NCBI GenBank assembly: GCA_963705375.1
Contig: OY970071.1
Span: 420,001 to 452,000 of the forward strand
Direction: 5' to 3'
Source: Candidatus Saccharimonadota bacterium
GTDB lineage: Archaea; Micrarchaeota; Micrarchaeia; Micrarchaeales; Micrarchaeaceae
DNA length: 32,000 nt
Numbering within the stretch: position 1 is the stretch's first letter; each line of letters opens with the position of its first letter. A program made the position numbers and the translations under genes. Positions 8,806 to 26,220 of this stretch are shown here, piece by piece. The notes under the pieces were generated by a model. That model was not told the DNA's origin. It worked only from the letters and a program-made list of their open reading frames with translations, and did no database searches.

Positions 8806-8958
8806 TTACTTTCCAGAATCTAACCGCGCTTCTTTCCTGCGCTCTATCATGCGCATCAAGAATTTCGTAAGGAAGGTCTCGTTGTCATGGAGCTTTTTGA
8901 CGATCGCAACCACGCGCATGTTTTTGACACGCTTGTTTATCACGACAGCATATTTCAC
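8806..8958 (-). CDS. Small basic protein, 50 aa (below the ORF-track size cutoff)
   Basis: GTG at 8958 to TAA at 8806-8808 gives VKYAVVINKRVKNMRVVAIVKKLHDNETFLTKFLMRMIERRKEARLDSGK. It fills the gap between the stop of the 242-aa gene (8963) and the start of the 784-aa gene (8795) with spacers of 4 and 10 nt. The only support is operon fit and a non-random-looking sequence. Confidence 0.35.
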   Translation of the reverse strand: MKYAVVINKRVKNMRVVAIVKKLHDNETFLTKFLMRMIERRKEARLDSGK

Positions 8959-10737: not shown

Positions 10738-11103
10738 CTATGCGTTTGGCTTGGCTTTTGTTTCCGGCATGCGCAATGCAGGCATCCAGCTGAGCTGCGA
10801 CAGCAGGTACATGAAAAGCACAACGGCACCTCCATAGATCACGCCCTTCATCGGATTGAACGCCACAAGCACCGCAGCAAAAACGATCCCGATGGCAACG
10901 CATTCGGCCTGGTGCCTTTTGTACTTTTGGCGCACGTTCCTATAGTTCTCGAAGCAATCGCGGCACACGACAAGCCCGTATTTCTTCTCGGTGCCAGTCA
11001 CGCGTTTGAACCACCTTATCGTGTTTAGCACGTAGTCCGGTAGGACTTCGAGACCTTCACGTTTGTTGCCGCACATTATGCAGCGGGATTCTTTTGCCTT
11101 CAT
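10738..11103 (-). CDS. Zn-ribbon membrane protein (N-terminal CxxC...CxxC, two C-terminal TM helices)
   Basis: 121 aa. The Cys pairs are CIMCGN...CRDCFENY, followed by the basic linker RNVRQKYKRHQ. The TM helices are CVAIGIVFAAVLVAF and VIYGGAVVLFMYLLSQL. It starts 4 nt after the upstream gene and is the last gene of the ATPase operon. Confidence 0.7.
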   Translation of the reverse strand: MKAKESRCIMCGNKREGLEVLPDYVLNTIRWFKRVTGTEKKYGLVVCRDCFENYRNVRQKYKRHQAECVAIGIVFAAVLVAFNPMKGVIYGGAVVLFMYLLSQLSWMPALRMPETKAKPNA

Positions 11104-11107
11104 AGCA

Positions 11108-11416
11108 TCAACTCATGTCCAGCGCCGCGTCGTATATGCGGCCTGCCTCTGCGCTGACGCGCTCTTCGTCAAGCGTTTCAAAAACTTCATTTATCGTGAG
11201 GTCGTCCATTCCAAGACGCCTCAGCACATCCGCACACCTGTCACGGTCTATGCCCCCTTTTTCCAGCGCGGCCGTAAACGCCAATGCGTTGATGTGCCTG
11301 TGGCTCTTCTCCATGCTGCTGAACAAAGACTGTATGGCCTTCTCACTCATGCCGAAGATCGTGAGAACGCGCCTCATCTCATTCCTTGCTATGGTGAAGG
11401 TGGTCGCTTTAGGCAT
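11108..11416 (-). CDS. Small helical protein homologous to the C-terminal domain of the adjacent ATPase
   Basis: The ORF spans 11108-11431 with GTG at 11431. ATG at 11416 gives MPKATTFTIARNEMRR... and an 8-nt overlap with the ATPase stop. An ungapped ~67-aa alignment to the ATPase tail shares the core I-x-S-L-F-x-x-M-x-x-x-H-R. Confidence 0.7.
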   Translation of the reverse strand: MPKATTFTIARNEMRRVLTIFGMSEKAIQSLFSSMEKSHRHINALAFTAALEKGGIDRDRCADVLRRLGMDDLTINEVFETLDEERVSAEAGRIYDAALDMS

Positions 11417-12926
11417 GCCCGACACCCGCACTTGAGATTATCCTTGTTATCAACGTATCCTCTATGCTCATGCTCTTCAGGAATGATACTATGTTCGATA
11501 GGCTCACGTTGGCGCCGGCAAGGCTCCTTATGAGGTCCAGTATCTTCATGGCGCGGTGATGGTTGTCCATATCAGTAAACAGGCTGTCGATGGTATCTCC
11601 GCCGACGTTGTACTCTATCAGCTTGTTCTTGAGCTCCTCCTTCTCGAACTGGTATTCGCGCGTGAGGACGTTCGCGGCTATCTCACTCTGCATTAGCACG
11701 TCGCTGAGGTCTAGAGTATAGACGTACAGCGGCTCTTCCCCGTGTATGCGCCCGAGGACGAACGTCTCTGGGAAGCGCAGCGAAGTCTGGAAGGCCATCT
11801 CGACAGCGGCTTGGCCGACACCGAATTTGCTTATCTCGTCACGTATGAAATCTGAGAAGTTGAGCGACCCCTGTATGTAGTTCATGAAGCGCTCGAATTT
11901 TATTCTCAGTATGAAGTTCGTGCCCACGTTAGAGAATATCGCCTCTGCTATGTCTGTCGGGTTTTGCGATGCGACTATGAGGCCGAACTGGTATTTCCTG
12001 CCTTCCCTGACTATCATGATGGCGTCGCTCTTCTCATCGCTTGCGACCTTCCATGCCTCGTCAAGGACCACGAGGGCCCTGAGCCCCTTTGTTTCGCTCC
12101 AGCCTTCGAAACGCATCTGCTCCTTCAGCGTCTGCAGTATGAAAAGCGCTGCGAGGGCCCTGAAGCGCTCGTCAGGCAGCGCTGACAGGTCCATGTCAAC
12201 GAGCCCGGATTTAACGAGTTCGCTTATGTTCAGGGTGCTCTGCCTTGCGAAGTAATCTTCACCTTCTCTTGCGAACTGCTTGAGCCTGTATATCGTGTTC
12301 TCCAGTTCTGCAGGATACTGGTATGTGCCCTCCTGAAGCTTCTCCTGCAGATACTTGACTACATCGTTCAATGTAGGGGCTTGGAGAGCGGCCGGTGGAA
12401 GCTCCGCAAGCTCGAAGCCTGCCTTCGCATATGCCTGTTCCAACGCCTCTTGCGTCAGGCGCCTCTGCTCAGGGTACTGCGCTATGTCGGTCAGTATCTC
12501 GAATGAGGTTATAAGCTGCTTTGCCCTGTCTATCGGCTTCATGCCTGACAGGTCCATTATGTTTAGGAAGTCGCCCTTTCCTAGAGCAATCACTACGCCG
12601 CCGGTCTGCTTCACCCATGCCCTGTATTCGCCAGCCCAGTCTATTATAACAGCGTTTGTGTTCCAAACGTAGCTTGCGCGTATGAGCAGCGTCTTGACGA
12701 AGTAGCTCTTACCGGAACCAGTTATGCCGACAACGCATATGTGCGGGTTCGTCAGATTGAGGAACGACCATGTGAACGGCACCTTGAAGATCTTGGTCAT
12801 GCCTATGTAAATGGATTGGAAGGGGTCGCTGAGCAGCACGCTTGCGGGCGGTTCCGGAGGCCTTGACAAGAAAGCCCTTCTGGCTATCTCGTTGCTCATT
12901 ATGTGCTGCAGTTTGAGCATGGTCAT
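11409..12926 (-). CDS. FtsK/HerA-superfamily ATPase, VirB4/TrbE/CedB-like ATPase domain with extra C-terminal helical domain
   Basis: Walker A is VVGITGSGKSY and Walker B is ALVVLDEAWKV (DEAW type). REGRKYQFGLIVASQNPTDI corresponds to the RK...TQ motif of VirB4/HerA. The track ORF begins at GTG 12980. ATG 12926 lies ~28 nt downstream of a TATTTATA box (12951-12958), consistent with a leaderless start. ATG 12899 is an alternative. Confidence 0.88.
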   Translation of the reverse strand: MTMLKLQHIMSNEIARRAFLSRPPEPPASVLLSDPFQSIYIGMTKIFKVPFTWSFLNLTNPHICVVGITGSGKSYFVKTLLIRASYVWNTNAVIIDWAGEYRAWVKQTGGVVIALGKGDFLNIMDLSGMKPIDRAKQLITSFEILTDIAQYPEQRRLTQEALEQAYAKAGFELAELPPAALQAPTLNDVVKYLQEKLQEGTYQYPAELENTIYRLKQFAREGEDYFARQSTLNISELVKSGLVDMDLSALPDERFRALAALFILQTLKEQMRFEGWSETKGLRALVVLDEAWKVASDEKSDAIMIVREGRKYQFGLIVASQNPTDIAEAIFSNVGTNFILRIKFERFMNYIQGSLNFSDFIRDEISKFGVGQAAVEMAFQTSLRFPETFVLGRIHGEEPLYVYTLDLSDVLMQSEIAANVLTREYQFEKEELKNKLIEYNVGGDTIDSLFTDMDNHHRAMKILDLIRSLAGANVSLSNIVSFLKSMSIEDTLITRIISSAGVGHA

Positions 12927-12950
12927 ATGGCAGAAAGCACTCATCCAAAG

Positions 12951-12958
12951 TATAAATA
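12951..12958 (-). promoter_or_regulatory. TATA box (TATTTATA on minus strand) for the ATPase operon
   Basis: Plus-strand tataaata at 12951-12958 is centred ~28 nt upstream of the in-frame ATG at 12926. Confidence 0.4.
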
Positions 12959-13058
12959 CTTTCTCCTGCAGGCTTTGCACACAAGATATTCGGAAATCCG
13001 GTCAAATATTGAAATCACGGTTTGTGCGAAGGCCTGTTTCATGAAGGAGACGCTGGCA

Positions 13059-14108: not shown

Positions 14109-14951
14109 TCAGCTCTGCTGGTCGAACTGTGCCGCTAGCGCGCCGAAAGATGTAGGCAGTGAGAAGTTGAACTGGAACAGAGTGTAGAGCTCGCTCCCCA
14201 CCACACGGACAAGGTCCACATCAAGGCCACTCATGGCTATCTGCAGAGCGTTTAATTGTGTAGACAGTGCGTCAAGCGAGGCCTTCTCGCTCACGCCAAC
14301 TGCAGTAGTCTCCAAGTACATGATTGTCGCTATTGGCTTCTCGCCCTGCGATATCCTGTCTATCTGCGTTTGCAGCACAGCTATCCTTCGTCTCAGGTCG
14401 GTGAGTATCATCTCATTGGAGGAGCTGCTCTGCATTGCCCTTGCCAGTTGGAACTCCTGGAACGAGCGTTTGCCTTCGATTTCGTCGCGCGCTTTCTGAA
14501 CATCAAGACCGGTTGACAGCACATGGAATTTGAACGGAAAGTCCAGGTTCATGAGGATCCTCTCCCAATTCTCAGGGGCCTGCAGGAGCTTTGCCTGGTC
14601 AGCCTCGGCATTTGCCTGCTCTTGCTTGAAGTAATACGGGAACAGGTTCCCGCTAAGATAGCCTGTTGCATAGTAAAGGCCCTTGACATTCTTGACTATG
14701 GCATCCTGGCTGCTGATGATCTTGTAGTTGATTGCCGGTTGGAACGTTATGCCAAGAACGTTCGTCACGAAGGAGAAGACAGTATAGTCTATGAAGTTGA
14801 GCACCAGAAGCAGGCCCATCCCGGCGATGATAATAAGCAGCGCGACGATGGAGAGAAAACCCTTGCCTATCGAAGCAAGGTTGGTTATCGCAAGCAGCGG
14901 CATGAGCATCGTCATGACGAGATAGGATATTCCTTCAGAGTCCACCATCAT
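14109..14951 (-). CDS. Membrane protein: N-terminal TM hairpin plus ~200-aa soluble domain (paralog of 14948-15781)
   Basis: 280 aa. The TM helices are LVMTMLMPLLAITNLASI and FLSIVALLIIIAGMGLLLVL. The soluble domain contains GLYYATGYLSGNLFPYYF, DFPFKFHVLSTGLDVQKARDEIEGKR and ...IATIMYLETTAVGVSEKASLDALSTQLNALQ. An ATGA overlap links it to the upstream gene. Confidence 0.8.
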   Translation of the reverse strand: MMVDSEGISYLVMTMLMPLLAITNLASIGKGFLSIVALLIIIAGMGLLLVLNFIDYTVFSFVTNVLGITFQPAINYKIISSQDAIVKNVKGLYYATGYLSGNLFPYYFKQEQANAEADQAKLLQAPENWERILMNLDFPFKFHVLSTGLDVQKARDEIEGKRSFQEFQLARAMQSSSSNEMILTDLRRRIAVLQTQIDRISQGEKPIATIMYLETTAVGVSEKASLDALSTQLNALQIAMSGLDVDLVRVVGSELYTLFQFNFSLPTSFGALAAQFDQQS

Positions 14952-15781
14952 ATCACCTGCTCCTGTATGCCCTTGCTTATCTGCTCGCTGACTGTCGAGT
15001 ACGGAATGAGGAACTCCGGCTCTATGAACGTCAGGAGATCTTTGCCCGTCACTATGCTAGGAGAGATGCCGAGAACAGTGCCTATTCCGGCCATGAGCTC
15101 CTTTGCCTTCTGCTGCGCTATTGTGGCGGCTTCGAACTCCTTGCTTCCGAAAGCGGATATCGCCGCGTAGCTGGCCAGTTCCAGAGAGGTCGTTGCGCTC
15201 ACGTTGTCTAGCATCTTTCGCCACATCGAAAGCTGGCCTCTCACGCGCTCTATTTTGGGCTGAGGAGCACTTTCCTGGACAAGATTGCTCTCTTCCGCTT
15301 CTTTGTTGTTTATCGCGTCGCGCAGCTGCTGTATGTACGAATCTTTGTTCATGATATAGAGGCTTGTCGTAAACCTTGTAGGGTCCTTGCTGATGCCGAC
15401 AAGCCGGCTGACCTGCCTTGTGAAAGCGGTCTTCTCGTCATCGCTCATCTCTGTCGATGAGCTGTAAAGAGGGATGCTTATGTACACTGTTGCAGTGTAC
15501 GTGTCGCCGTGCTGCTGCAGGACCGAATCTGCGCTTGTGGAAAGACGGTAAGGTTCCTCTTTGCTCAGCACCACGTTCCTGCTGCGCTGCTGCAGCATGG
15601 GCATTATTATGTATGAGTAGCGCCTTGAGAGGCACGCACCAACGTCAACGTCCACTGCGATAAGCAGAAGAAGAAGCTTTACCAAGTCCATGATCCCGCC
15701 ATGGGGAAGAACGATGGCTAGCCCGAGAATCGCAAAGGATGCAACCAATAGGCCCAGGAACAAAACGGTCTTGCTGTCCAC
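14948..15781 (-). CDS. Membrane protein: N-terminal TM hairpin plus ~200-aa soluble domain (paralog of 14109-14951)
   Basis: 277 aa with a GTG start. The TM helices are VLFLGLLVASFAILGLAIVL and LVKLLLLLIAVDVDV. The soluble domain contains DTYTATVYISIPLYSS, TRFTTSLYIMNKDSYIQQLRDAINNKE and ...LELASYAAISAFGSKEFEAATIAQQKAKEL, collinear with the downstream paralog. A TATA-like ATAAAAAT lies ~32 nt upstream. Confidence 0.8.
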   Translation of the reverse strand: MDSKTVLFLGLLVASFAILGLAIVLPHGGIMDLVKLLLLLIAVDVDVGACLSRRYSYIIMPMLQQRSRNVVLSKEEPYRLSTSADSVLQQHGDTYTATVYISIPLYSSSTEMSDDEKTAFTRQVSRLVGISKDPTRFTTSLYIMNKDSYIQQLRDAINNKEAEESNLVQESAPQPKIERVRGQLSMWRKMLDNVSATTSLELASYAAISAFGSKEFEAATIAQQKAKELMAGIGTVLGISPSIVTGKDLLTFIEPEFLIPYSTVSEQISKGIQEQVI

Positions 15782-15828
15782 TCAACTCGGAGCAGAATCT
15801 CAACCAAGATTTTTATGCCTTTACTTTG

Positions 15829-16959
15829 CTACACGAATGAGCGTATCTTGTTTGCGTTTCCATATGTGCCGCCCAGGAAACTGGAGAACTGCGCTATCGT
15901 AGCATACACCATGCCTATTATGAGCGCAGGATAGAAGAGCACAAGAAGCCAGAACGATGACATGTTGGCCTGAACATTCTGCAGCTGCATCGCAAGCGGG
16001 CTGTCAGGCCCAGCGGCATTGGCAGCAGCACTGCTCGCGTCAGAACCGAATCTATTCATCTGCGCGGCCGAAGCAGACATTGACGACTGTACAGAAGGGC
16101 TTGTCAGATAGAATGCTATCGCAAACATCGATGGCATCACGAGATAGAACGAGATGCCTATCGCCATCATGGTGCCGCCAAGTGCCCTTGTCGGAAGGAA
16201 AGCCCTGAACACCACGCCAGGAACGATGAACACGGGGATTGCCGCTATCGAGAAGAACACAAGAACGTAGTATTCGGACCACAGGGCGAGCATGCCGTCT
16301 ACAAGGAAGAACGCTATCGCTCTCGCAGGGTCCAGGAAGCCTATGCTAAGAGGAAGGGTCAGGAAGGAGAGTGTTGACTGCAGGGAGAACGAGGCACCGT
16401 ACGCAGATGAGTAGGTGATGTCCTGGGCAAGGACCCATTTCAACACATAATAGACATTGTATATCGAGGAGAACAGATTTTGCGCCGTGCCTAACGTGCT
16501 GGTGATCAAATTCAGCGCTGTCGCATATGGATTTATGGCACCCACGAGTATTCCAGGGAAAACGCCGAACATCACCGCACACACGTACACGAATATTCCG
16601 ACAATGATCGCGCTTGCAATCGCTTCATATATCTCAGCTATCCCGAAGTTGCGTATCCTGTCGCTCTTGAACGCTATGCCGATCATAACAGCAATCGATG
16701 CGATGCTAAAAGCCAGCAGCACTGCAACGACAGCTATCGGCAGCTCGGTCTGCCACTGCTGGTATATCGCATAGTTTATCGGGCAGTACCAGGTGTACCC
16801 CCCGAGCGCACCACTTATAGATGATGGCAGGGAAGCGCAGCACTCTTGCGGGTAGTTGGCATCGTTTGGGTTGCAGGCGACTGGAGTGTCTGCACGTATA
16901 GTCCCAGTAACCAGGACAGCCATTACGAGCAGCAGCATCATAGCGATAGCGAGTTTCAT
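15829..16959 (-). CDS. Polytopic membrane protein, paralog 1 of 6 (PFTR-GG family; candidate VirB6/TrbL/CedA-like)
   Basis: Signal peptide MKLAIAMMLLLVMAVLVTGTIRA, then a short Cys-containing ectodomain and multiple TM helices. Family motifs are RNFGIAEIYEAIAS and VFRAFLPTRALGGTMMAIGISFYLVMP. AGGTGG overlaps the upstream stop codon 4 nt before ATG 16959. Confidence 0.85.
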   Translation of the reverse strand: MKLAIAMMLLLVMAVLVTGTIRADTPVACNPNDANYPQECCASLPSSISGALGGYTWYCPINYAIYQQWQTELPIAVVAVLLAFSIASIAVMIGIAFKSDRIRNFGIAEIYEAIASAIIVGIFVYVCAVMFGVFPGILVGAINPYATALNLITSTLGTAQNLFSSIYNVYYVLKWVLAQDITYSSAYGASFSLQSTLSFLTLPLSIGFLDPARAIAFFLVDGMLALWSEYYVLVFFSIAAIPVFIVPGVVFRAFLPTRALGGTMMAIGISFYLVMPSMFAIAFYLTSPSVQSSMSASAAQMNRFGSDASSAAANAAGPDSPLAMQLQNVQANMSSFWLLVLFYPALIIGMVYATIAQFSSFLGGTYGNANKIRSFV

Positions 16960-16967
16960 CACACCAC

Positions 16968-18047
16968 CTACACAAGGCCTCCAAGGAGCGACATGAAGTC
17001 GAGCTTTTCTCCGAATGCTTTGGAGAAATCAACTATAAATGCGTCCAGTATCATGAAATTCAAGAACGGTATGAATGTGAACCCCGCTATGAGGTAGCCG
17101 AATTGCGTGATCAGCTTCGGAAGCACCGACGGGTCACCGCCCAGACTAAACATCGCCCAGATCCCCTGGAAAAGGGTTATCAGCGCATTCTGCGAGAGAT
17201 ACTGGGTAATTCCGAGGCTTATGATCTGAAAGTCTATGAAGCCATAGGTTATGCTTATGAGCAAGGGATACACCAGGCCAAGACCCAATCCGATAGCGAT
17301 CATCATGCCTCCGAAGCTCCTTGTGAAGCCGAGGGTCCTTGCCACAAGGCCCAGGGTCATGAAGAAAGCGAGGAAGAAAGGAGCGCACGCGAGAAGGAGC
17401 ACCTGCAGCTGGCAGATCAATGCGCACATCAGGAAAGCCTTAAGGCCTATGCTGAATATCTGACCTATTGTTGGCGGAAGGAGAGACGGCGTATACATAC
17501 CGAAAGAAAGGCCTTTAATCGGAGTGAGCGAGATGGACAGGCCAGGAATCAGACCTGTCACGAAAGGCACGTACATCACCAGAGTCCCGACATCGTACAC
17601 ATAGCCCGTGAAGAAATTGAGGTCGCACTGCGACAGCGAGAATATGTCAGCGGAGGTAGAGCAATCTGGAGGAGCGCCACTTGGAGTGGCACCAGGCGGG
17701 GAGTACTTTGGAACCATGTTAAGGTTGGAATACGCGCCTTGTGGGTTGAACATGAACACATACGAGAAAGCGCCGAACACCATCAGCATCACCAAAGAGA
17801 GAAGCGCCTCGTAGATCTGTATGCGCGCCCATCTTTTTGCGTTTTGGCTTGCAGAAAGGCTGCTGAGAGCGTACACCATCGCAGCGACGGTAGTGACAGC
17901 CAACACACAAATGGCGGCAACAGGCATCCAGTATGAGACCGTCGAGGATATGTTCTGCGCAGGGGATATTGTGGTCGTCGTGGCCTGCGCTAGCGGCAGG
18001 GCTAGGCACACGGACAGAAAAGCCAGTGCAAGCGAGTAGTCTCTCAT
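16968..18047 (-). CDS. Polytopic membrane protein, paralog 2 of 6 (PFTR-GG family)
   Basis: Signal peptide MRDYSLALAFLSVCLALPLAQA. Family motifs are RWARIQIYEALLS and LVARTLGFTRSFGGMMIAIGLGLGLVYP. There is a 4-nt gap to the upstream gene. Confidence 0.85.
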   Translation of the reverse strand: MRDYSLALAFLSVCLALPLAQATTTTISPAQNISSTVSYWMPVAAICVLAVTTVAAMVYALSSLSASQNAKRWARIQIYEALLSLVMLMVFGAFSYVFMFNPQGAYSNLNMVPKYSPPGATPSGAPPDCSTSADIFSLSQCDLNFFTGYVYDVGTLVMYVPFVTGLIPGLSISLTPIKGLSFGMYTPSLLPPTIGQIFSIGLKAFLMCALICQLQVLLLACAPFFLAFFMTLGLVARTLGFTRSFGGMMIAIGLGLGLVYPLLISITYGFIDFQIISLGITQYLSQNALITLFQGIWAMFSLGGDPSVLPKLITQFGYLIAGFTFIPFLNFMILDAFIVDFSKAFGEKLDFMSLLGGLV

Positions 18048-18051
18048 AATA

Positions 18052-19146
18052 TCATATCAGACCGCGCAGCGCGCCCCTCTGGCTGAGCGCAGGAGAACCC
18101 AGCATGTCGCCAAGAGTCTCCATGAAGTCCATAGACATCATCAACGAAAATACAACACCGAGTATCAGATAGAACGACGGCTCCACAACATTGCTCATGA
18201 AATACGGCAGAATCGGCTGCATTTGGGGAATATTTAAGAACGTAGTAATTGTATTAAACCAATTATTTTGGTCTGGTTGGAAAGTTGGCAGACTGAGAGT
18301 ACTGGGGACCTGCACAGACACGACGGCCTGGCTGGACGGCAATAGGAAGAAATAGATAAAGAACGGGAACGCGAAGTAGAATGCGATAAACAGGCCAAGG
18401 AAGGAGCCGCCCGCGGCGCGCGTGAAGGGCAGCGTGCGCAACACTATGCCTACGTAGAAGAACAGCGGAAAAATAGAATAGAAGATGCCTATCATGATAG
18501 CAATAGTCATGAAAAAGATAGCCATTACGCCGGTGAACATCGCGAAGTTCCCAATTAGGCCATCAGTAGTGTCGGTCAGAGGAGAGAGACCGCTTAGAGG
18601 TGACATGAAAGGGCCGAAGTCCCCAGGCTGTATTGCTACAGTCAGAGAGCTTATCATCGTGAATATGTTCTGGTCGACACTGAGAAGGGCCCATATGTTG
18701 ATCATGTTAAGCGAGGTGCTGGCGAGTGTGGTGCAGTCCTTGGTAAACACGTTGTCCAGAGTGTTTCCTGTAGCTGCCTTGGTTACGAAGGTGCCAAAGC
18801 CGGAAGTGCCCGACACGGTGGAGAAAGCGCCGATGAAGACGAGCACGATGAGGCAGGTTATCGCGACTTCTCTCATCTCGTCCTTCGAGAACTTGAGCAG
18901 AAGATTTATGTTGAAAGCAGTGCCAAGCATGTACGCGATGATACTAACCATCAGCATCGTCAGCATCAGAAGCGCGGATATTTCAAGAAGCTGGCCCTGA
19001 CCCGAGATGTTGGAGCTGCCGAATATCGGCGGAGTTTTCATCACGCCGGAGCTGGAGCATATGTTGGTCGCCTGATCCTGGGCAGCAGGAACGCCCATAA
19101 GAAGAGAGATCAGCACAACAATAATTGCGATCTTGAGTTTGTCCAT
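18052..19146 (-). CDS. Polytopic membrane protein, paralog 3 of 6 (PFTR-GG family)
   Basis: The track ORF runs to 19173. ATG 19146 gives MDKLKIAIIVVLISLLMGVPAAQDQ (signal peptide) and a 7-nt gap after the upstream stop. Family motifs are FSKDEMREVAIT and IVLRTLPFTRAAGGSFLGLFIAFYFAFP. Confidence 0.85.
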   Translation of the reverse strand: MDKLKIAIIVVLISLLMGVPAAQDQATNICSSSGVMKTPPIFGSSNISGQGQLLEISALLMLTMLMVSIIAYMLGTAFNINLLLKFSKDEMREVAITCLIVLVFIGAFSTVSGTSGFGTFVTKAATGNTLDNVFTKDCTTLASTSLNMINIWALLSVDQNIFTMISSLTVAIQPGDFGPFMSPLSGLSPLTDTTDGLIGNFAMFTGVMAIFFMTIAIMIGIFYSIFPLFFYVGIVLRTLPFTRAAGGSFLGLFIAFYFAFPFFIYFFLLPSSQAVVSVQVPSTLSLPTFQPDQNNWFNTITTFLNIPQMQPILPYFMSNVVEPSFYLILGVVFSLMMSMDFMETLGDMLGSPALSQRGALRGLI

Positions 19147-19153
19147 ACGATCA

Positions 19154-20584
19154 TCAGGGCACCAGCCTTGCAAGGCCTGCGAGATCGGTATCGCCGCCCA
19201 TCAGGCCGGAAAGACCTCGCAACGAGGATATCGCTATAATGATATTTAGAAGTGGCAAAAGGTATATGTCTATCCCCATTATGCCATATGCGTTGAGGAA
19301 TTGATAGAATATTTTGGTCGCGTCCTTGTAATAGCATGTTTGAGGCAGAGCGAGGTCAGGCGCGAAGGTCCCCACTTGGCCTGACGAAGTGAACAGGCCC
19401 ACTATCTCAGAACCTATGGCGTAGAAAGGAACGAGCAACACATCCAGATCTTCTACCTCAGCCCCAAGAAGGTTGCCGTCTGACGGCCAACAGCCGTTAT
19501 TTGATATGACGTTTTTCATATTGGGCTGTACAAAGAAGTTGAGGGTGTACGTCCCTGAAGCAGTGGATAGTGATTGTATCTGAGTGATTGAATTGAAGCC
19601 GTATATCGCGGCGGAGTTGGAGATGTTAGAATTTGAAAGGGAGAGGTACTCTATCGCGTACGTCGCAGGAAAGACCAGCACCATCACCAGCGCTACCGCT
19701 ATGAAGAGACCCCCCAGAGGCCTTGTGAACAGCGTTGAGCGCAACACAAGGCCTATGAAGAGCAGGTACGGCCAGATATAGAGGCACATCACAACGAAAT
19801 ACAGTTGGGCAGACAGCAGCTCGACAGACGTCGTGAGCAGATTTCCGAAAGTGCCTAGATTCTGGATCAGCAGATCATAGCCGGCATAGGGCATGAAGTA
19901 ATATTGGAATTCTGCCAAGGGAGGCAGCGCGCCTTCTATGGGCAGAAGGCACTGAGAATCCACATTGCTGTCATCCGTGCACACCCAGAATGACGGCTTT
20001 ACGCTGTTGAGGAAGCCCAGATAAGCGTCGAAGATGAACGCAGCGTTGACATTCGCGGCAGTCTGATTTGTGATGTTTGCGATTATTGTTGCGGCAGCCG
20101 CAAGAGGATAATCTATCCGTGTGGTCAGGTCAGGATTTTGGGAGTTGGCATCAGACACCACGCCGCATATGCCTTTGAAAGCCAACCCTGAGCTAGTGGT
20201 GGGGCTTGAGAGCAGCGAGTTGGAACTCCCGATCAATGAAAGAGGAGAGGTGCGCATCACATTCGCGCACAGGCTGTTGATCGCGGCAGAGCTCATCAAT
20301 TGGGTGGATTGTCCTAGAACGCTGAAGAACACACCACCATAGACGGTCATGAAACTGATTATTATCAAAGCCAGTATGAAAGTGCCCACGAGCTGGTACA
20401 ATTCGCTCCTGGCCGCGCTCTTGGCCCTGTCGCTGCCAAGTATGACACCTATAAGGTACCAGATGCCGACTATCGCAGAATCCAAGAGTAGCGCGACGAT
20501 GACCACAGGCATGATATAGCTCTGCGCAGTGGTGAAGCTGGTCACGAAGAGGAACTTGCCAGCGATCATCGGGTATTGCAACAC
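19154..20584 (-). CDS. Polytopic membrane protein, paralog 4 of 6 (PFTR-GG family) with enlarged Cys-containing extracellular loop
   Basis: GTG start at 20584, preceded by AGGTG (5-nt spacer) that overlaps the upstream TAG. Family motifs are KSAARSELYQLVG and LVLRSTLFTRPLGGLFIAVALVMVLVFP. Confidence 0.85.
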   Translation of the reverse strand: MLQYPMIAGKFLFVTSFTTAQSYIMPVVIVALLLDSAIVGIWYLIGVILGSDRAKSAARSELYQLVGTFILALIIISFMTVYGGVFFSVLGQSTQLMSSAAINSLCANVMRTSPLSLIGSSNSLLSSPTTSSGLAFKGICGVVSDANSQNPDLTTRIDYPLAAAATIIANITNQTAANVNAAFIFDAYLGFLNSVKPSFWVCTDDSNVDSQCLLPIEGALPPLAEFQYYFMPYAGYDLLIQNLGTFGNLLTTSVELLSAQLYFVVMCLYIWPYLLFIGLVLRSTLFTRPLGGLFIAVALVMVLVFPATYAIEYLSLSNSNISNSAAIYGFNSITQIQSLSTASGTYTLNFFVQPNMKNVISNNGCWPSDGNLLGAEVEDLDVLLVPFYAIGSEIVGLFTSSGQVGTFAPDLALPQTCYYKDATKIFYQFLNAYGIMGIDIYLLPLLNIIIAISSLRGLSGLMGGDTDLAGLARLVP

Positions 20585-20592
20585 ATTGACAC

Positions 20593-23154
20593 CTATATGC
20601 TGTTCCAGAACGAACCGACTCCCTCAAGCCCGGAGTTGAGCGCCTTTGCCAGCCCTGTCGCGAAGCCTATCGTTATCGCAAAGTTTATACCGAATAATAC
20701 AACAGCCTGGAATAAATACTGCGCCATCTGCGTGATGAGGTTGCGCGCATCGTTCATCACATTCCACGGGTTTAGCAGCTGGACGTTTGAGCTGAGAGTG
20801 TTCCAGAAGAGGCCGCCAGCGCTCAAGAATGCCGATCCAGCGTTCGATAATGCCGACCCTGATGTTGAGGACTCGGAAGAGAAGAAAGAATTCACATTTA
20901 TGTTATTCAGCATATAGCTCTGGCCGGAATTTGTGAGTGCATAATTCATTATCGTGGAGTCGAATGCTATCGTAAGGGGATATATCAAGTACATTGCGAT
21001 CGCCAACGCCAGCAGCGCGTTAGCGGATTTCCTAAGTTCAGTACCAGTGAATGCAAGAGAGCGCATGATTATCGCGACGGGCAGTATGGTGGTGAACGCG
21101 GTATACTCCATCACCACAAGCAGCAGATACTGCAGAAACAGCGCTCCGGTCGCCATCGTGATCATCGGAGAGAATAGCGCCATGTACAGTTGTGACAGCG
21201 AGGTGAACACGCTAGACAGAGCGTTTATGTTTGGCAGCACCAGCGACACTGATAGGAAAGAGCTCGAAAACAGAGGGAGACCGAAGTCGGAAAACATCTT
21301 GCCTGCATTCTCGTAGCCAGCGCCGCTGACTGCGCCGCCGAAGAAGTCCAAGACCTGGTAGATTATCTGTGCCTCGACCTGGTATGCGACGGAATAGGAG
21401 TAGAGCTGGGTCAGCAGCCCCACGCCAGTCACTGTGGCCAGGTTCCCTATATAATTGTCAGCGAACTGGAATGGATTAAGGTTATTCCCGTTTTCGTAGT
21501 TCTTTGTGTAGCTCACAGACAGGTTGCATGCGACCTGCGCAGACCCTACCAGTATGGCTATTATCACTGCGCTGAGCAGGATCTGGCTTGACTCGGCCTT
21601 TACAGCATCTATAAGCTTGGCCCTGGTCTTTGCCGGAAACACGTTGGCTATCGCATACACGAATGCTACGACAGTCAGGCTTATGAGTATGACCAAGAAG
21701 TTTATGCCTATCCAGTTGCCCGTGTAGCCATTGCCGCCATTGGCGTAAAGCGCGCACGTTGCTATTGTGGTTGTGCTGGTCGAGGTAGATGTCGAGGTAC
21801 TCGTCGTTGATGATGTTGTAGTGGTGGAGTATACCACCATCGTGGTGTGGTCCCCGCTTGGGTTGTAGTTAGAGTCTCCTTGGAAGGCGGCATATATGGT
21901 ATGGGTGCCCAATCCAAATGCAGACGCAGGTTTAGTAAGTGACGCTTGATAAGTAGAGCCCGTTTGTGTAGTTGCATAACCTATTTGGTGTGCAGAGTCC
22001 ATAACGTCTTCGTAGAAATACACAAAGTCGTTCGCTTGCGGCCTAGGAGAGATGTATACGGCCATAGTTACAGGAGCGCTACCAAGAAGTACAGAATTAG
22101 GAGCCACGACCAAGGTGGTAGGTGCCGTTCCAGGATACACGGATACCTGAATGGTTCCGCTACTCGCAGTGTGGAAGGTGACTATCGGACTACCGGCAGA
22201 ATATTGAGAGAGTGTTGCGGAAAAAGTGTAAGTGTTTCCTCCTTGCAGGAGGCTCGACGGAACAGTCACACTATACTGGCCACTACTTGGGAATGATGCT
22301 CCGAATTGCGACTGAAGGCTTGCGCCCAAATTCTCATACACAATCACGCACGACGTAGTTTGTGAGGCAGAACATGGGCGCAGCGTGGCAGAAGATGCGG
22401 ACACAGTGCCAGATATGGTTACTGAGTTTGGATATGTCACAGATGATGACGAGCTAGAAATGGATATGGCCGTGTTGACTATCGTGGTGCTAGAGGTTGT
22501 AGAGGTGGAGGTCGTAGATGTGGTGGTGGAGGTGGAGGTTGAGACCGAGGTGGTGAACGACGCGGAAAACCAGACCACGTCCCGGAAGTTGCACGTCGCA
22601 TAGCTGCAACACGACATACAGCCTACGCTGTAACCATTAACACAGTCACAGCCGCAAGTTCCCCAAGGCGCATACTGAAACAAAAAGACATAGCCCTGTG
22701 CTGCTCCATTTTTAGTGTAGGACCACACTTCAGTACCCTGCTGGTATAGAACAGTGCCACTACTCCAAGTATCGGGAGAGGAACTGGAGGAGCCGTGGCA
22801 GTATGGGAAGCTGTATTGGTTAGTATTAGTAAAAACATACGTTTTTGAGCCAGATGTGCACGTGAATGAAGAGACAGATGATGTAAGGTACCCAGAAGTA
22901 TAGTGGTTACCACCAAGCATACATTGAACGGTAGTCGTGTCTAGACCCGCATCTCCGGCATTTTGAGATGCACTCCCGAAAGTAAATGAGCAGCCTGGAT
23001 TAGGAGCCCAAGAATATCCATAATATGTAGTACCGCCAACGATGCAGGAAGTAGGGTCTGCCTTTATGTACGTGCACAGTCCCAGCAGCATTATGACAGA
23101 TATCAGAAGAATGAAGGCCAGCAGGTGCGGGTGTGTGCGGTTGTGTGGTGCCAT
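20593..23154 (-). CDS. Chimeric surface/membrane protein, paralog 5 of 6: signal peptide, Cys-rich domain, Ser/Thr linkers, Ig-like domains, then C-terminal PFTR-family membrane module
   Basis: 853 aa with a signal peptide (HLLAFILLISVIMLLGLCTYIKA). It has a ~160-aa Cys-rich region (GTCGCDCVNGYSVGCMSCCSYATC) and S/T tracts at aa ~199-239 and ~443-464. An Ig-like unit ends GTHTIYAAFQGDSNY. The membrane module carries a degenerate motif, IIMRSLAFTGTELRKSANALLALAIAMYLIYP. Confidence 0.85.
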   Translation of the reverse strand: MAPHNRTHPHLLAFILLISVIMLLGLCTYIKADPTSCIVGGTTYYGYSWAPNPGCSFTFGSASQNAGDAGLDTTTVQCMLGGNHYTSGYLTSSVSSFTCTSGSKTYVFTNTNQYSFPYCHGSSSSSPDTWSSGTVLYQQGTEVWSYTKNGAAQGYVFLFQYAPWGTCGCDCVNGYSVGCMSCCSYATCNFRDVVWFSASFTTSVSTSTSTTTSTTSTSTTSSTTIVNTAISISSSSSSVTYPNSVTISGTVSASSATLRPCSASQTTSCVIVYENLGASLQSQFGASFPSSGQYSVTVPSSLLQGGNTYTFSATLSQYSAGSPIVTFHTASSGTIQVSVYPGTAPTTLVVAPNSVLLGSAPVTMAVYISPRPQANDFVYFYEDVMDSAHQIGYATTQTGSTYQASLTKPASAFGLGTHTIYAAFQGDSNYNPSGDHTTMVVYSTTTTSSTTSTSTSTSTSTTTIATCALYANGGNGYTGNWIGINFLVILISLTVVAFVYAIANVFPAKTRAKLIDAVKAESSQILLSAVIIAILVGSAQVACNLSVSYTKNYENGNNLNPFQFADNYIGNLATVTGVGLLTQLYSYSVAYQVEAQIIYQVLDFFGGAVSGAGYENAGKMFSDFGLPLFSSSFLSVSLVLPNINALSSVFTSLSQLYMALFSPMITMATGALFLQYLLLVVMEYTAFTTILPVAIIMRSLAFTGTELRKSANALLALAIAMYLIYPLTIAFDSTIMNYALTNSGQSYMLNNINVNSFFSSESSTSGSALSNAGSAFLSAGGLFWNTLSSNVQLLNPWNVMNDARNLITQMAQYLFQAVVLFGINFAITIGFATGLAKALNSGLEGVGSFWNSI
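21763..21828 (-). repeat. Second Ser/Thr-coding linker tract immediately before the membrane module
   Basis: Encodes STTTTSSTTSTSTSTSTSTTTI. Confidence 0.6.
22438..22560 (-). repeat. Low-complexity Ser/Thr-coding tract (probable O-glycosylated linker)
   Basis: Encodes SFTTSVSTSTSTTTSTTSTSTTSSTT...SISSSSSS. The plus strand shows gtggaggt/gtagaggt-type short repeats. Confidence 0.6.
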
Positions 23155-23158
23155 GGTA

Positions 23159-24727
23159 TCACGCGAGTTTGAACTTGCCTACGCCGAGCCTGACGGAGCC
23201 CCCAAGCGGCTTTGCGATTGCGTTCGCAGCTATGAGCGTGATTATCATGTCAAGGAAGAACAGTATGAACTGTATGCTCATGCCCGCACCGTATCTCGTT
23301 ATGAAATTCATGACGGGAAAGATGCTGTTGATGTTCAGTATGTTTAGGCCTGTAGTGAGGCCGTTGTTGAATGCGGGCACGTTTACGTTCTGAGAGCCGA
23401 CGACCATGCCCATCAAAACCGTAGGTATTGCAGACAGCGCACTGACTAAAAAGGAGATTACGCCATCGACTGCGTCGCAGAAAATTCCGGAGCTGTATGC
23501 GGTGGCGCACGACCCGCTAGAAGGAGGTACAGACGTCACGTAGCTGAAATAGTTGGTGACTGGCATGTTAAGCACCAGCATGAGAGTGGGGTACACCAGA
23601 GCTATCGCTATGCCGATACCTATCATCGTGCCGCCTATCGGGCGCAGGAAGGGCATGGAACGGAGTATCACGCCCATCGGAACGAAAACCGAAAGCCCGA
23701 GCACGACTATCGTGGGCAGAAGATCGTATTGGAATTGCAAGAGCATCAGCATCGGGACTATGACGATCGTCAGTATGTCCTTAAGGAAAGAGTAGCCTGC
23801 GCCGCCTGTAGATGTAAGGAAGTTGCTGGCAAGCAGTTTTACGTTGTAAGACCCGAACTTGAAGGTTACGACCGTGACCAGAGGAGTTTCCGGAGGGGGC
23901 AATGGTATCGGAAACCATGTCGAGAGCATCATGCCGGTCAACGTGCCCAGCCCAACGGACAGACCCATGATTGCGGAGAAGGCAGCGTAGGCCGCGTTCA
24001 GCTGCGGAGTGAGATAGCCAGAGTACACGTTCTGATACAGCGCGCAAAGGTTCGTGGTCAATGCTGAGCTCGTTATGCAAGGATTTGCAAACGTGCCGCC
24101 AGTCGAGGAAGCGATATTGGAAGCAAAAGCGGTCGAGACGTTGCTCACCATCACCAGGACGCTGTACAGTACCGCGATTATCAGCGCGCTCTTGGTGACT
24201 TCCCACAGTTCGCCCCTGTACCAATTCTGGAAGCCGTCGATCCTGAGCACTTCACCCATCATGTATGCCACAGCTACGAACGAGAGAGATAGCATTATGC
24301 CGACGCCTGCTATCGGCATCGAGTCGGCGATGCAGCTGCCAAGGTCTCCGGCAGTTCCGATTATGCAATGGAAAGGATTTACGGTCACCTGAACGCCTGC
24401 GCCAGGACCGATCATCGTACCCGATGAATCGTAAGGATAAACATTCACAACATAGTTTGTTTGTGTTGACGCCGATAAGATCATGGTGCACGTGCTGCTT
24501 GACGATGAGCAGGAATTTGGCTCTTGATTGCCAGTATTGCTGTTTGTAAGGAACCAGCTGTAGGTCGCAGGAGTTCCACCAGTAACGCTGGCAGTGAAAG
24601 TGGATGCAAAGCCCGAACTGACGATATTTGTAGGCGAGACGGTGAGAGAATCTTGTGCCGCATTTGGCATATGCGCAAATGAGAGCACAACAAATAACAG
24701 CAGCAGCAGCAACTGCGCCTTCCGCAT
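23159..24727 (-). CDS. Paralog 6 of 6: signal peptide plus one Ig/PKD-like domain fused to a PFTR-family membrane module
   Basis: 522 aa. The signal peptide is MRKAQLLLLLLFVVLSFAHMPNAAQD. The ectodomain reads LTVSPTNIVSSGFASTFTASVTGGTPATYSWF...VVNVYPYDSSG. Family motifs are WYRGELWEVTKSA and VILRSMPFLRPIGGTMIGIGIAIALVYP. A TATA-like CTAATAAAAGG lies ~27 nt upstream of the ATG. Confidence 0.85.
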   Translation of the reverse strand: MRKAQLLLLLLFVVLSFAHMPNAAQDSLTVSPTNIVSSGFASTFTASVTGGTPATYSWFLTNSNTGNQEPNSCSSSSSTCTMILSASTQTNYVVNVYPYDSSGTMIGPGAGVQVTVNPFHCIIGTAGDLGSCIADSMPIAGVGIMLSLSFVAVAYMMGEVLRIDGFQNWYRGELWEVTKSALIIAVLYSVLVMVSNVSTAFASNIASSTGGTFANPCITSSALTTNLCALYQNVYSGYLTPQLNAAYAAFSAIMGLSVGLGTLTGMMLSTWFPIPLPPPETPLVTVVTFKFGSYNVKLLASNFLTSTGGAGYSFLKDILTIVIVPMLMLLQFQYDLLPTIVVLGLSVFVPMGVILRSMPFLRPIGGTMIGIGIAIALVYPTLMLVLNMPVTNYFSYVTSVPPSSGSCATAYSSGIFCDAVDGVISFLVSALSAIPTVLMGMVVGSQNVNVPAFNNGLTTGLNILNINSIFPVMNFITRYGAGMSIQFILFFLDMIITLIAANAIAKPLGGSVRLGVGKFKLA

Positions 24728-24872
24728 GCTACGTTATAACAAGGAAGCCTTTTATTAGTTAGCTCTCGGCAGAAGAACGGAGGTCGTTGCCGCCGTGCAG
24801 ATTCCTGAATGCGCGCCAGCCAGACAGCAAGGATTGCTCTGCACTAGCACTTCTGCGGCAAGACGGAGAGCA

Positions 24873-25604
24873 TCAGCGCTTCAGCATCTTGAACCTGTTT
24901 ATGTAGAACTCGCCCTGGAGCACCACAAGGAAAGGCAGTATGAAGAGCGAGCTGAATATCAGCATCGCGTACCTTGAGACCAGCGTACCGCCCACCAGTA
25001 TGAATATGAAATCGAAGGCGCTCAGAAGGACCACTGCCACTACGGCCCATATCGCAAAGTAGTCAGGCCTGCGCATGAAGAACCTGAAGCTTGAACGCAG
25101 GGAGTGCAGCACCCTGCTGTCGTCAATGACCACGGACGATGGCGCATAGAAGAAAAGCGGAGTCAGCGCCAGGCCTGCGACAGCGGCAGCCGATGCGGAG
25201 TAGCTGGTGCCATAGAACAGCACGCTGACAAGAAGCAGTATGAGCGTCTCTAGCATCAGCAGCATGAACACCTTGCTCGTGTATGTCTCAAGACCTTCCA
25301 TGACCTCGCGCCGTATCCTTGTGTGGGTCCTGCTGTGCTTGCACATGACGTTGATAGCGACTATCGCAAAGCTGAGGAACAGCAAGGAGAAGAACACAGC
25401 GACAACTATGACTGCGGTGCTGAGAACGGTCATGTTGAGGAACACGCTTGAGGTCCTCAGCAGTATCGCACCCATGTCATTGTATGTGGGAAAAGCGGCA
25501 AATATGGGAATGAGGAACGCGAGCACGAACGCCAGCGAGAACAGGAGTATCAGCTTTATGTTCTTCATGTACGTGCCAACTGAATAGAGCAGTATGTTAG
25601 ACAT
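24873..25604 (-). CDS. Polytopic membrane protein (~6 TM), function unknown
   Basis: The track ORF starts at TTG 25631. An ATATTTTTATTG TATA-like element at 25634-25645 favours ATG 25604 (MSNILLYSVGTYMKNIKLILLF...). The protein has hydrophobic helices throughout and basic loops (KHSRTHTRIRRE, RFFMRRPD). Confidence 0.8.
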   Translation of the reverse strand: MSNILLYSVGTYMKNIKLILLFSLAFVLAFLIPIFAAFPTYNDMGAILLRTSSVFLNMTVLSTAVIVVAVFFSLLFLSFAIVAINVMCKHSRTHTRIRREVMEGLETYTSKVFMLLMLETLILLLVSVLFYGTSYSASAAAVAGLALTPLFFYAPSSVVIDDSRVLHSLRSSFRFFMRRPDYFAIWAVVAVVLLSAFDFIFILVGGTLVSRYAMLIFSSLFILPFLVVLQGEFYINRFKMLKR

Positions 25605-25744
25605 AAACGCACGCAGACTAATGCCTGGCAATCAATAAAAATATGTCGCTTGCCTGCCGCAGGTTTGGAATGGCAGTGAGACCTGCCTTTTCATCGCAGC
25701 AGGAGCGCACTGCCGCAGCGCGCACCTTTCTTCGCTAGCAAGAA

Positions 25745-25790
25745 TCAATAGAAGAAATGAAAAGAAAGAATCTTGGCAAAGACTGCCAAG
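25745..25790 (-). terminator. Hairpin plus T-rich tract downstream of the pilin-like gene
   Basis: cttggca (25772-25778), a 5-nt loop, then tgccaag (25784-25790). On the minus strand this is followed by ATTCTTTCTTTTCATTTCTTCTATTG. The hairpin starts ~44 nt after the stop at 25834. Confidence 0.45.
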
Positions 25791-25833
25791 TGGCCAATGC
25801 CGCGCACAGTTTAGCAGATTAGCTAACTGCGGA

Positions 25834-26220
25834 CTAACCGCATTGAGATGCAATAGAGGTGTTGCTGGTTATGACGCCCATGATCCATGGAGCTATCATC
25901 GCAAGCACGACGCCGGCAATCCCTCCGGTTATCATGCCCATGCCGTAGCCCTGGATCTGTCCCTTGAGGTTTCCTGGAGCTATGTTGCCGCCAGCATACA
26001 GCATGGCGCCCAGAACAAGAAGCGTAAGGCCGAGCACATACACTGCGGTGTGCACGATGCTGTACACCGCGCATATAGGAGCGAGCACGTTGGCAAGGCC
26101 CGACGTCGCCGCTACAGGCACCAGAGCGCACACATATCCGAGGAACATTGCAAACATTATGGTAAACTTGAAGTACATCCCGTACTTCTGCATCGCCAAT
26201 AGGATTTTGCTTGGATTCAT
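25834..26220 (-). CDS. Small two-helix membrane protein, candidate VirB2/TrbC/CedA1-like conjugative-type pilin
   Basis: 128 aa. It has a long leader with a hydrophobic core ending ALVPVAA-TSG. Two Gly/Ala-rich hydrophobic helices follow (VYVLGLTLLVLGAMLYAGG and GMGMITGGIAGVVLAMIAPWIMGVI), joined by a short loop containing a basic residue (NIAPGNLKGQ). It has its own promoter region and terminator. Confidence 0.5.
   Translation of the reverse strand: MNPSKILLAMQKYGMYFKFTIMFAMFLGYVCALVPVAATSGLANVLAPICAVYSIVHTAVYVLGLTLLVLGAMLYAGGNIAPGNLKGQIQGYGMGMITGGIAGVVLAMIAPWIMGVITSNTSIASQCG

Follow-up and report, generated by a model that had tools for sequence, protein, structure and literature searches.

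Six tandem membrane-protein paralogs beside a VirB4/HerA-class ATPase: a candidate envelope machine of the Micrarchaeota

We study here a stretch of 32,000 nucleotides (nt), the whole of which we call the window: positions 420,001 to 452,000 of the forward strand of contig OY970071.1 (assembly GCA_963705375.1), deposited as a Candidatus Saccharimonadota bacterium and placed by GTDB in the Micrarchaeota. Our subject is an array of six consecutive minus-strand genes, M1 to M6, at window positions 15829-24727, which lies within a chromosomal cluster of about 20 kb (6441-26220). An earlier note on this DNA had listed six open reading frames (ORFs) here, of 377, 359, 373, 476, 853 and 522 amino acids (aa), and had taken their products for paralogous polytopic membrane proteins. 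All six ORFs are confirmed, at exactly the following minus-strand coordinates, and the spacing between neighbouring M genes is -20 to +8 nt. Each product contains the same membrane module with five transmembrane (TM) segments, the M core.

15829..16962, minus strand: M1, 377 aa; M core with a signal peptide and a small N-terminal outer segment with 4 Cys; the paralog chosen for modelling
16968..18047, minus strand: M2, 359 aa; M core with a signal peptide
18052..19173, minus strand: M3, 373 aa; M core with a signal peptide
19154..20584, minus strand: M4, 476 aa; no N-terminal signal peptide ahead of the M core; outer loop between TM2 and TM3 the longest (166 aa, with 4 Cys)
20593..23154, minus strand: M5, 853 aa; begins with an extracellular extension of 472 aa and continues with the five-TM M core (about 20593-21735)
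23159..24727, minus strand: M6, 522 aa; signal peptide and a weak PKD/immunoglobulin (Ig)-like N-domain ahead of the five-TM M core

In public gene calls M1 is shorter by one codon at its start, which gives 376 aa, and the true start of M3 is probably an internal ATG (MDKLK...).

Since the BLASTP matches between pairs of M proteins are weak (20-40% identity over collinear segments), we tested paralogy by comparing profiles with profiles. For each paralog we built one alignment of 66-83 sequences, using orthologs from 83 related loci, and we compared the resulting orthogroups with HHalign. All 15 of the M-M pairs score at 89.7-99.2% probability, with E-values from 2e-6 to 1e-19. As controls, the M proteins were compared with the neighbouring membrane proteins U1, U2, D1, D2, E1 and E3 (described below); these comparisons reach at most 6%, except for M5 against U2, at 47%. 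Thus M1-M6 are true paralogs, well beyond chance, and the tandem paralogy of six polytopic membrane proteins in an archaeon, which the earlier note had proposed, is borne out.

The motif strings on which that proposal was based are all present, and they fall, collinear, in the same blocks of a MAFFT alignment of the six proteins. The invariant columns of this alignment are R253, R259 and P277 (M1 numbering), which come from the region ...LRSLxFTRxxGG...(Y/F)P. Other details of the proposal needed amendment. What had been described as an invariant Glu proves to be a pair, [E/Q]-x-x-[E/Q], of which one member or both are Glu: Q stands first in M2, and second in M4 and M5. The R...TR..GG motif of M5 is degenerate, as had been observed; it is degenerate in all 67 of 67 M5 orthologs, and so is an ancient feature rather than a local decay. 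Cysteines are confined to predicted outside segments, as had been supposed, but their numbers are sometimes odd. We also considered an internal repeat, in which the TM1-2 hairpin would be homologous to the TM3-4 hairpin and both would be pilin-like; this was ruled out, at 0.1% probability.

Hydropathy and the positive-inside rule predict the same topology for all six proteins: five TM segments, with the N-terminus outside, the C-terminus inside and a large outer loop from TM2 to TM3. The module begins with a cleavable-looking signal peptide (absent from M4) and TM1, followed by a loop of 4-12 residues with 2-3 Lys/Arg. TM2 opens with the [E/Q]xx[E/Q] pair and leads into a Cys-bearing outer loop of 53-166 residues. 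TM3 is followed by a tight cytoplasmic turn, R-x-x-P-F-T-R-x-x-G-G, and then by a Gly/Ala-rich TM4 that ends in (Y/F)P; a second outer loop of 35-80 residues, TM5 and a basic tail of 14-19 residues complete the module. Within each M orthogroup these motifs are conserved at 80% or more. If the predicted topology is correct, the motifs conserved throughout the family are all on the cytoplasmic side. The AlphaFold2 model computed for M1 with 48 orthologs is a confident one (pLDDT 84.6, pTM 0.75). It has very long helices of 35-60 residues, and its first outer loop contains a small beta-hairpin; helices of the modelled length must reach well beyond the bilayer.

In front of the module, most members of the family have short N-termini, with medians of 18-75 aa before TM1. 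Long members carry N-terminal SprB, Big_3_5, Ig_2/3/7 or PKD domains, as do M5 and M6 in the window, and such domains are consistent with an outside N-terminus and surface exposure. The extension of M5 contains an Ig-like Big_3_5 domain, Ser/Thr-rich linkers and 15 Cys; its total of 853 aa is an outlier peculiar to the window genome, M5 orthologs being typically about 400 aa long. The same Ig-like family is used by an 890-aa protein elsewhere in the window (1448-4120, minus strand), which has Kelch repeats and a strong Big_3_5 domain (E 1.8e-20) and is probably another surface protein.

Searches of M1-M6 against Pfam (hmmscan, E ≤1), NCBIfam (E ≤0.1), PHROGs and PDB sequences give nothing meaningful except weak Ig/PKD matches in the N-terminal extensions. 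In the NCBIfam scan no M protein has a match, the presence of a CedA model in that library being unconfirmed. A Foldseek search of the M1 model against the viral BFVD library returns solely uncharacterised proteins, with non-significant scores. The suggestion that the family may be undescribed thus agrees with these libraries, and also with the literature, where we found no description of the family or of the cluster; our coverage of the literature is incomplete, so this is no proof of absence.

The array is widely and strictly conserved. When the GTDB species were scanned with one genome each, 176 stretches with relatives of M1 were found, which correspond to at least 176 species-level genomes, and an exhaustive search with a hidden Markov model of the six paralogs finds 2,887 representative clusters at E ≤0.001. 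Among the best 150 of these 2,887 matches and in the species scan, M homologs occur almost exclusively in Candidatus Micrarchaeota/Micrarchaeia bins, which include Ca. Micrarchaeum sp. A_DKE and also Ca. Mancarchaeum acidiphilum Mia14, whose M1 ortholog bears no annotation beyond 'multipass membrane protein'. A few records are labelled otherwise, as 'Marsarchaeota' (several), Methanothrix, Acidiferrales or Saccharimonadales (loci L021 and L023; protein P0067); these are probably mislabelled or mis-binned contigs.

We fetched 83 of the loci found in the scan of species-representative genomes, and they have a sole gene order: U2-U1-M6-M5-M4-M3-M2-M1-D1-D2-ATPase-(E0)-E1-E3-(e50)-E4. All six M genes are present in 65 of the 83 loci and the complete set of genes in 43; the exceptions are loci cut off by the end of a contig, or gene calls that are split or duplicated. 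In the relatives, the M paralogs are matched one to one by orthologs that keep the same order. Genes for topoisomerase VI subunit B (Topo VI-B) and an archaeal KH protein adjoin the cluster in each of the three genomes examined for this (the window, Mia14 and OY969114), and the GC content is unremarkable. Because the order is fixed, every paralog has one ortholog, and the flanks are shared, the six-fold duplication is older than the radiation of the phylum, with every copy retained. For the same reasons, the cluster belongs to the chromosomal core rather than to a mobile element.

Immediately downstream of the array lie three genes that bear directly upon its function.

14948..15781, minus strand: D1, 277 aa; N-terminal two-TM hairpin, then a cytoplasmic alpha/beta domain of about 220 aa
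14109..14951, minus strand: D2, 280 aa; paralog of D1
11409..12980, minus strand: HerA/VirB4-class P-loop ATPase, 523 aa; Pfam DUF87, AAA_10 and TraG P-loop

The ATPase has intact Walker A (GITGSGKS, at residue 85) and Walker B (LVVLDE, at 303) motifs. About 75 residues precede Walker A, and the protein has neither the VirB4 N-domain (PF03135) nor the HAS barrel of HerA. In HHalign it aligns with a profile of 13 plasmid VirB4 proteins at 98% (E 2.5e-13), to residues 414-704, that is, to the VirB4 C-terminal domain. [quoted passage not shown] Its best NCBIfam matches are CedD (3e-21), CedB (4e-18) and VirB4-like (3e-16), all far under the family cut-offs; for VirB4_CagE, for example, its score is 38 bits where the cut-off is 643, and for CedB it is 65 where the cut-off is 700. 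Against PDB sequences it matches HerA (4D2I) at E 1.7e-10 and VirB4 at E 7.6e-8, and the HerA models of PADLOC match it down to 1.8e-20. The PADLOC matches raise the reading of a defence system, which we reject: the ATPase has about a dozen conserved partners, mostly membrane proteins, in a core synteny.

D1 and D2 are related to one another (HHalign 96.8%, E 2e-10), and D2 always adjoins D1 in the loci. From the sequence of D1 we had suspected, before any fold search, a split-off VirB3 together with a VirB4 N-domain. When a model of D1 (pLDDT 67, a moderate value) was compared with the PDB by Foldseek, the top 14 matches were all TrwK/VirB4 chains of the R388 T4SS, with E-values of 0.012-0.078 and probabilities of 0.82-0.96. 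D1 is accordingly modelled as a candidate for a VirB3-like anchor joined to a VirB4-like, probably N-terminal, domain, and the VirB4 N-domain that the cluster ATPase does without may come from the separate proteins D1 and D2. Library searches leave D1 unassigned: Pfam scans of 30 D1 orthologs (E ≤10) give no consistent family, and a D1 profile finds nothing among PDB sequences.

The M proteins themselves resemble VirB6 in their topology. Agrobacterium tumefaciens VirB6 has an outside N-terminus, five TM segments, a large periplasmic loop and a cytoplasmic C-terminus (PMC6120205), and the predicted topology of the M core is the same as this published one. The F-x-x-T-R-type motif, which the earlier note had given as a hallmark of TrbL/VirB6, is indeed conserved in pTi-type VirB6, as GyLFd.Tr at residues 184-191, at the cytoplasmic end of the TM segment after the large loop; this is the equivalent topological position. 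In a comparison of the M1 model with 350,542 PDB chains, the matches of highest probability, which are among the top-ranked, are 7o3v_J (0.80), 8rtd_L (0.63) and 8rt9_F (0.57). These are stalk chains of R388, of 260-272 residues. Since an IncW VirB5 homolog of R388 TrwJ has 229 aa, the longer stalk chains must be TrwI/VirB6.

At the upstream end of the cluster lies a gene whose product has the architecture of a pilin.

25834..26220, minus strand: U2, 128 aa; leader with a signal-peptidase-like site, two hydrophobic helices and a basic connecting loop

U2 heads the cluster in 56 loci, and several relatives have two or three tandem copies. Two cysteines, C49 just before helix 1 and C126 at the extreme C-terminus, are invariant in an alignment of 26 orthologs (A3). 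A disulfide between them, if formed, would join the ends of the mature protein, which calls to mind T-pilin and RP4 TrbC, both cyclised head to tail. A search of PDB sequences, pilins included, with the U2 profile found nothing, and it is by architecture that we regard U2 as a candidate VirB2/TedC-like pilin. The TM1-loop-TM2 segment of M5 aligns in register with U2, at the 47% noted above; for comparison, VirB2 against VirB6 scores 12.7% as a control. This likeness recalls the reported relations of CedA1 to the N-terminus of CedA and of VirB2 to VirB6 (PMC9905601).

Taken together, these results lead us to read M1-M6, which are anciently diverged, as the polytopic membrane subunits, most likely the channel, of a phylum-wide, T4SS-like machine of the Micrarchaeota that is driven by a VirB4/HerA-class ATPase, with the M proteins in the place that VirB6, CedA or TedA holds in T4SS, Ced or Ted systems. 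This occupation of the VirB6/CedA position is the best functional reading that we can offer for the array, and we assign it a probability of roughly 55%. Established here are the paralogy, the strict constancy of number and order, the topology, the class of the ATPase and the place in the chromosomal core, whereas T4SS ancestry, hetero-oligomeric assembly, translocation and a part in host contact are inferred.

Such a machine might work as follows. A hexamer of the ATPase would dock at the membrane by way of D1 and D2, which would supply the VirB3-like TM hairpin and the VirB4-like domain missing from the ATPase. The cytoplasm-facing motifs of the M proteins would form an interface with this motor or among the M proteins themselves, and six different M proteins would assemble, by way of their cytoplasmic turns and long helices, into a hetero-oligomeric channel or platform, from which the long helices and outer loops would project outward. 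Since exactly six distinct copies are kept beside a six-fold motor, one may speculate that there is one M copy per protomer. The M assembly would support a pilin-like filament or conduit of U2, which could polymerise on the M proteins or line the conduit, and a macromolecule, either DNA or protein, would pass across the envelope. E4, a large bitopic protein at the far end of the cluster, would reach the cell surface, as would the Ig-like domains at the N-termini of some M proteins. The variable Ig-like fusions would thereby put adhesin domains at the same site, possibly in contact with a Thermoplasmatales host.

Micrarchaeota are dependent on Thermoplasmatales hosts, and the accounts of the Mia14 and A_DKE co-cultures that we consulted mention no such system. 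For these two reasons a role of the cluster at the host contact is attractive, and we consider it possible. A more specific version of our interpretation would make the cluster an extremely diverged T4SS derivative, fixed in the chromosome throughout the phylum, with a hetero-hexamer of six specialised paralogs in the VirB6 position, one for each protomer of a six-fold inner-membrane complex, a VirB4 split into the ATPase and two anchor/N-domain paralogs, and the long-sought conduit for attachment to the wall-less Thermoplasmatales hosts and for the exchange of DNA, protein or lipid; in this full form it is doubtful.

A number of our own results weigh against any descent from T4SS, and they favour instead a novel envelope machine that is driven by a HerA-class ATPase and has no T4SS ancestry. 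The VirB6-like topology and the weak fold matches would then be convergent or coincidental, the M proteins would be a genuinely new family, and the task of the machine could be the uptake of DNA or nucleotides, the biogenesis of a filament or nanotube, or membrane remodelling. The profiles of M, D1/D2 and U2 are all negative against VirB6, VirB4 and VirB2. None of the six M proteins matches TrbL (PF04610) in Pfam at the threshold given above. The profile comparison with TrbL/VirB6, which had been proposed as a check, yields at most 0.4% for the M orthogroups, both with a narrow, pTi-type reference (116 sequences) and with a broad one (24 sequences, from 11 plasmid T4SS loci); the sequence homology to VirB6/TrbL that had been entertained is therefore not supported, and we do not assign the M proteins to that family (PF04610). 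Even when HHalign is restricted to the region of the F-x-x-T-R motifs, the M proteins and VirB6 align neither significantly nor in register. The pooled M hairpin reaches 3.6% against U2, and U2 reaches 5.9% against a profile of 12 VirB2 proteins. D1 and D2 have no profile similarity to VirB4, VirB3, VirB5 or VirB1 in HHalign.

The structural matches are open to the same objection, since every one of them has E above 0.01 and a TM-score below 0.35. Neither those of M1 (E 0.2-0.5, TM-score 0.27-0.34) nor those of D1 (E about 0.01, TM-score about 0.26, from a model with pLDDT 67, the matched part of VirB4 not being reported) are significant. The ATPase is by sequence as close to HerA, including HerA of defence systems, as it is to VirB4, and its scores against HerA equal or exceed those against VirB4. 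Finally, no other hallmark gene of a T4SS is recognised: Pfam and NCBIfam scans find no VirD4-like coupling protein, relaxase, VirB8 or VirB1 among the cluster genes scanned.

What stands against a machine without T4SS ancestry is, first, the agreement between the two models. M1 and D1 independently pick, as their highest-probability matches among 350,542 chains, different components of one and the same R388 inner-membrane complex, and both of these matches had been predicted in advance. The M topology matches that of VirB6 (PMC6120205). Moreover, the components of Ced and Ted are without mutual sequence similarity and are nevertheless accepted as T4SS derivatives (PMC9905601), so the negative profiles of the M proteins do not exclude common descent. 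On balance we regard a HerA-class machine of independent origin as unlikely, and as the best-surviving of the alternatives.

The variable N-terminal SprB, Ig, PKD and Big_3_5 domains of the family, together with its long, Cys-containing outer loops, suggest another alternative, in which the M proteins form no channel and serve mainly as anchors or scaffolds for Ig-like adhesins or for tethering of the S-layer, the ATPase acting in their assembly or in an unrelated process. The short N-termini of most members, however, make display optional, and the strongest conservation resides in the motifs that face the cytoplasm. Furthermore, exactly six paralogs in a fixed order beside an ATPase module throughout the phylum, and tightly packed with it in the window, point to a stoichiometric machine rather than to interchangeable anchors. 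We therefore judge a purely anchoring function to be quite improbable.

Two further possibilities, that the M proteins transport solutes as transporters or permeases and that the array is part of a conjugative or viral element that has integrated, are very improbable indeed, even though the proteins are polytopic and VirB4/HerA-like ATPases are frequent on mobile elements: no M protein matches any Pfam or NCBIfam family, transporter or other, the module has five TM segments and helices of 35-60 residues that reach far past the bilayer, and a mobile element is rejected on synteny, given the Topo VI-B/KH neighbours in three genomes, an internal order fixed in 83 loci, the unremarkable GC content, the 176 M1-relative stretches of the species-representative scan, and the finding of no recognisable integrase or relaxase among the scanned cluster genes. 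We also considered the secretion system proposed for archaea by Makarova et al. 2015 (arCOG01314, MoxR ATPase, vWA), which has a different composition and was ruled out.

The remaining genes of the conserved cluster are the following.

24873..25631, minus strand: U1, 252 aa; conserved polytopic membrane protein with motifs that include FPTYND and YAPxSIVID
11108..11431, minus strand: E0, 107-aa soluble protein; overlaps the stop codon of the ATPase gene; conserved in 67 loci
10738..11103, minus strand: E1, 121 aa; zinc ribbon (CxxC...CxxC) at the N-terminus, plus a hydrophobic membrane segment; Cys pairs conserved; 65 loci
8963..9691, minus strand: E3, 242-aa cytoplasmic protein; N-domain, coiled coil and a winged-helix-like C-terminal end; 61 loci
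8806..8958, minus strand: e50, 50-aa basic protein; a gene of 47-49 aa stands at the equivalent position in relatives; 38 loci by tblastn
6441..8795, minus strand: E4, 784 aa; N-terminal TM segment, extracellular domain of about 500 aa, second TM segment, cytoplasmic domain of about 215 aa

U1 is found in 64 loci, always between U2 and M6. E0 resembles, by eye, the final stretch of the ATPase, some 100 residues long (about 11409-11800), with the pattern ...SLF..M...H....L........, which suggests that it is a duplicate of the helical C-terminal domain of that protein. E3 has weak Pfam matches to the ZapB coiled coil and to Rrf2/EAP30. E4 is a glycoprotein-like bitopic protein whose extracellular domain is rich in N-x-S/T sequons; in 60 loci it is the last cluster gene before Topo VI-B, and it has no Pfam or PDB match. 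For U1, U2, D1, D2 and E4 alike there is no Pfam match above the curated threshold.

The window contains two interruptions of the conserved order. Between D2 and the ATPase gene lies a gene for a 214-aa soluble protein (13059-13703, minus strand), which has no counterpart in the 83 loci and no Pfam or PADLOC match, and which seems to have been inserted in this lineage specifically. A second insertion, in what is just a short gap between E1 and E3 in the relatives, consists of two small plus-strand genes with a 4-nt overlap (10036-10619; 70 and 124 aa). Read by eye, this pair looks like a VapB-like antitoxin with a PIN/VapC-like toxin (VapBC); it has no PADLOC match.

Upstream of U2, at 26281-27555 on the plus strand, is a divergent gene for a very basic protein of 424 aa, with one N-terminal TM segment and Gly/Arg/Lys-rich stretches. 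It has no significant Pfam match, and it is not found at the equivalent position in Mia14 or OY969114. Still farther upstream, an ORF of 1241 aa (28206-31931, minus strand), without a Pfam or PADLOC match, may encode a large surface or S-layer-type protein.

The cluster as a whole is thus a concrete and testable candidate, with about 16 co-oriented genes whose order is constant across the related loci examined. At least 10 of its conserved protein families had no Pfam match above threshold when scanned, and the 4 of these that were scanned against NCBIfam as well had none there either. Two of its carriers, Ca. Mancarchaeum acidiphilum Mia14 and Ca. Micrarchaeum A_DKE, are in co-culture, which makes proteomics, cryo-electron tomography and heterologous expression feasible; the A_DKE locus lies at NZ_CP060530: 804308-825351. 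If our interpretation is correct, the domesticated archaeal derivatives of T4SS, namely Ced and Ted, would be extended to a DPANN phylum.

It is useful, finally, to compare the cluster with the known systems that it resembles. With HerA, an archaeal helicase/translocase associated with DNA repair and defence, it has the ATPase core in common. It differs from the HerA systems in that its ATPase has no HAS barrel and is accompanied neither by NurA, Mre11 or Rad50 nor by Sir2 or any other partner in defence; instead, the ATPase gene is set among a dozen conserved genes, mostly for membrane proteins.

The next comparison is with the DNA-import systems of Crenarchaeota, Ced (CedA, CedA1, CedB, CedD) and Ted (TedA, TedB, TedC, TedD). 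They too are chromosomal, domesticated, minimal and T4SS-like systems of archaea, with a polytopic channel protein (6-7 TM segments), a two-helix pilin and VirB4/HerA-like ATPases. Their components, like those of our cluster, are mutually unrecognisable by sequence, and the closest NCBIfam matches of the cluster ATPase are CedD and CedB. Several features nevertheless set the cluster apart from them. Its ATPase scores 76 bits, compared with a Ced family cut-off of 600; it has six paralogs in the channel position rather than one, and one ATPase rather than two; and D1 and D2 are without a counterpart in Ced or Ted. In addition, DNA import has been demonstrated for Ced.

As for individual components, U2 shares with VirB2, TedC and CedA1 a leader and two hydrophobic helices joined by a basic loop. 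D1 and D2, together with the ATPase, would reproduce the domain content of VirB3-VirB4 fusion proteins (compare TrwM-TrwK), with the difference that here there are three genes, the part outside the ATPase is duplicated as D1 and D2, and these two have no similarity to the VirB3-VirB4 proteins at the level of sequence.

For the array itself, the comparison is with VirB6/TrbL. Both kinds of protein are polytopic, with the N-terminus outside, five TM segments, a large loop after TM2 and the C-terminus inside; both are encoded near a VirB4-class ATPase; and in both, where the TM segment that follows the large loop ends on the cytoplasmic side, there is a conserved turn of the F-x-x-T-R type. The M proteins differ in their conserved set, which consists of R...R...GG...P and [E/Q]xx[E/Q]. 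Unlike VirB6, for which a Trp is reported to be essential, they have no invariant Trp in our lists of invariant columns, which are not a dedicated test. They also differ in their setting, namely an archaeon with an S-layer and with neither an outer membrane nor peptidoglycan.

Within this family, the expansion in Rickettsia is a genuine parallel, as the earlier note had anticipated. Rickettsia has five tandem VirB6 paralogs, about 80% divergent and with variable extensions, which adjoin virB3-virB4 (PMC2653234). There are five paralogs in that array (RvhB6a-e) and six in ours, and in both cases tandem, highly divergent copies with variable extensions are kept in a host-dependent organism with a reduced genome. 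If our interpretation holds, the Micrarchaeota cluster would be the first archaeal parallel to the multi-VirB6 arrays of the Rickettsiales, and the two would point to a common logic in symbionts with reduced genomes.

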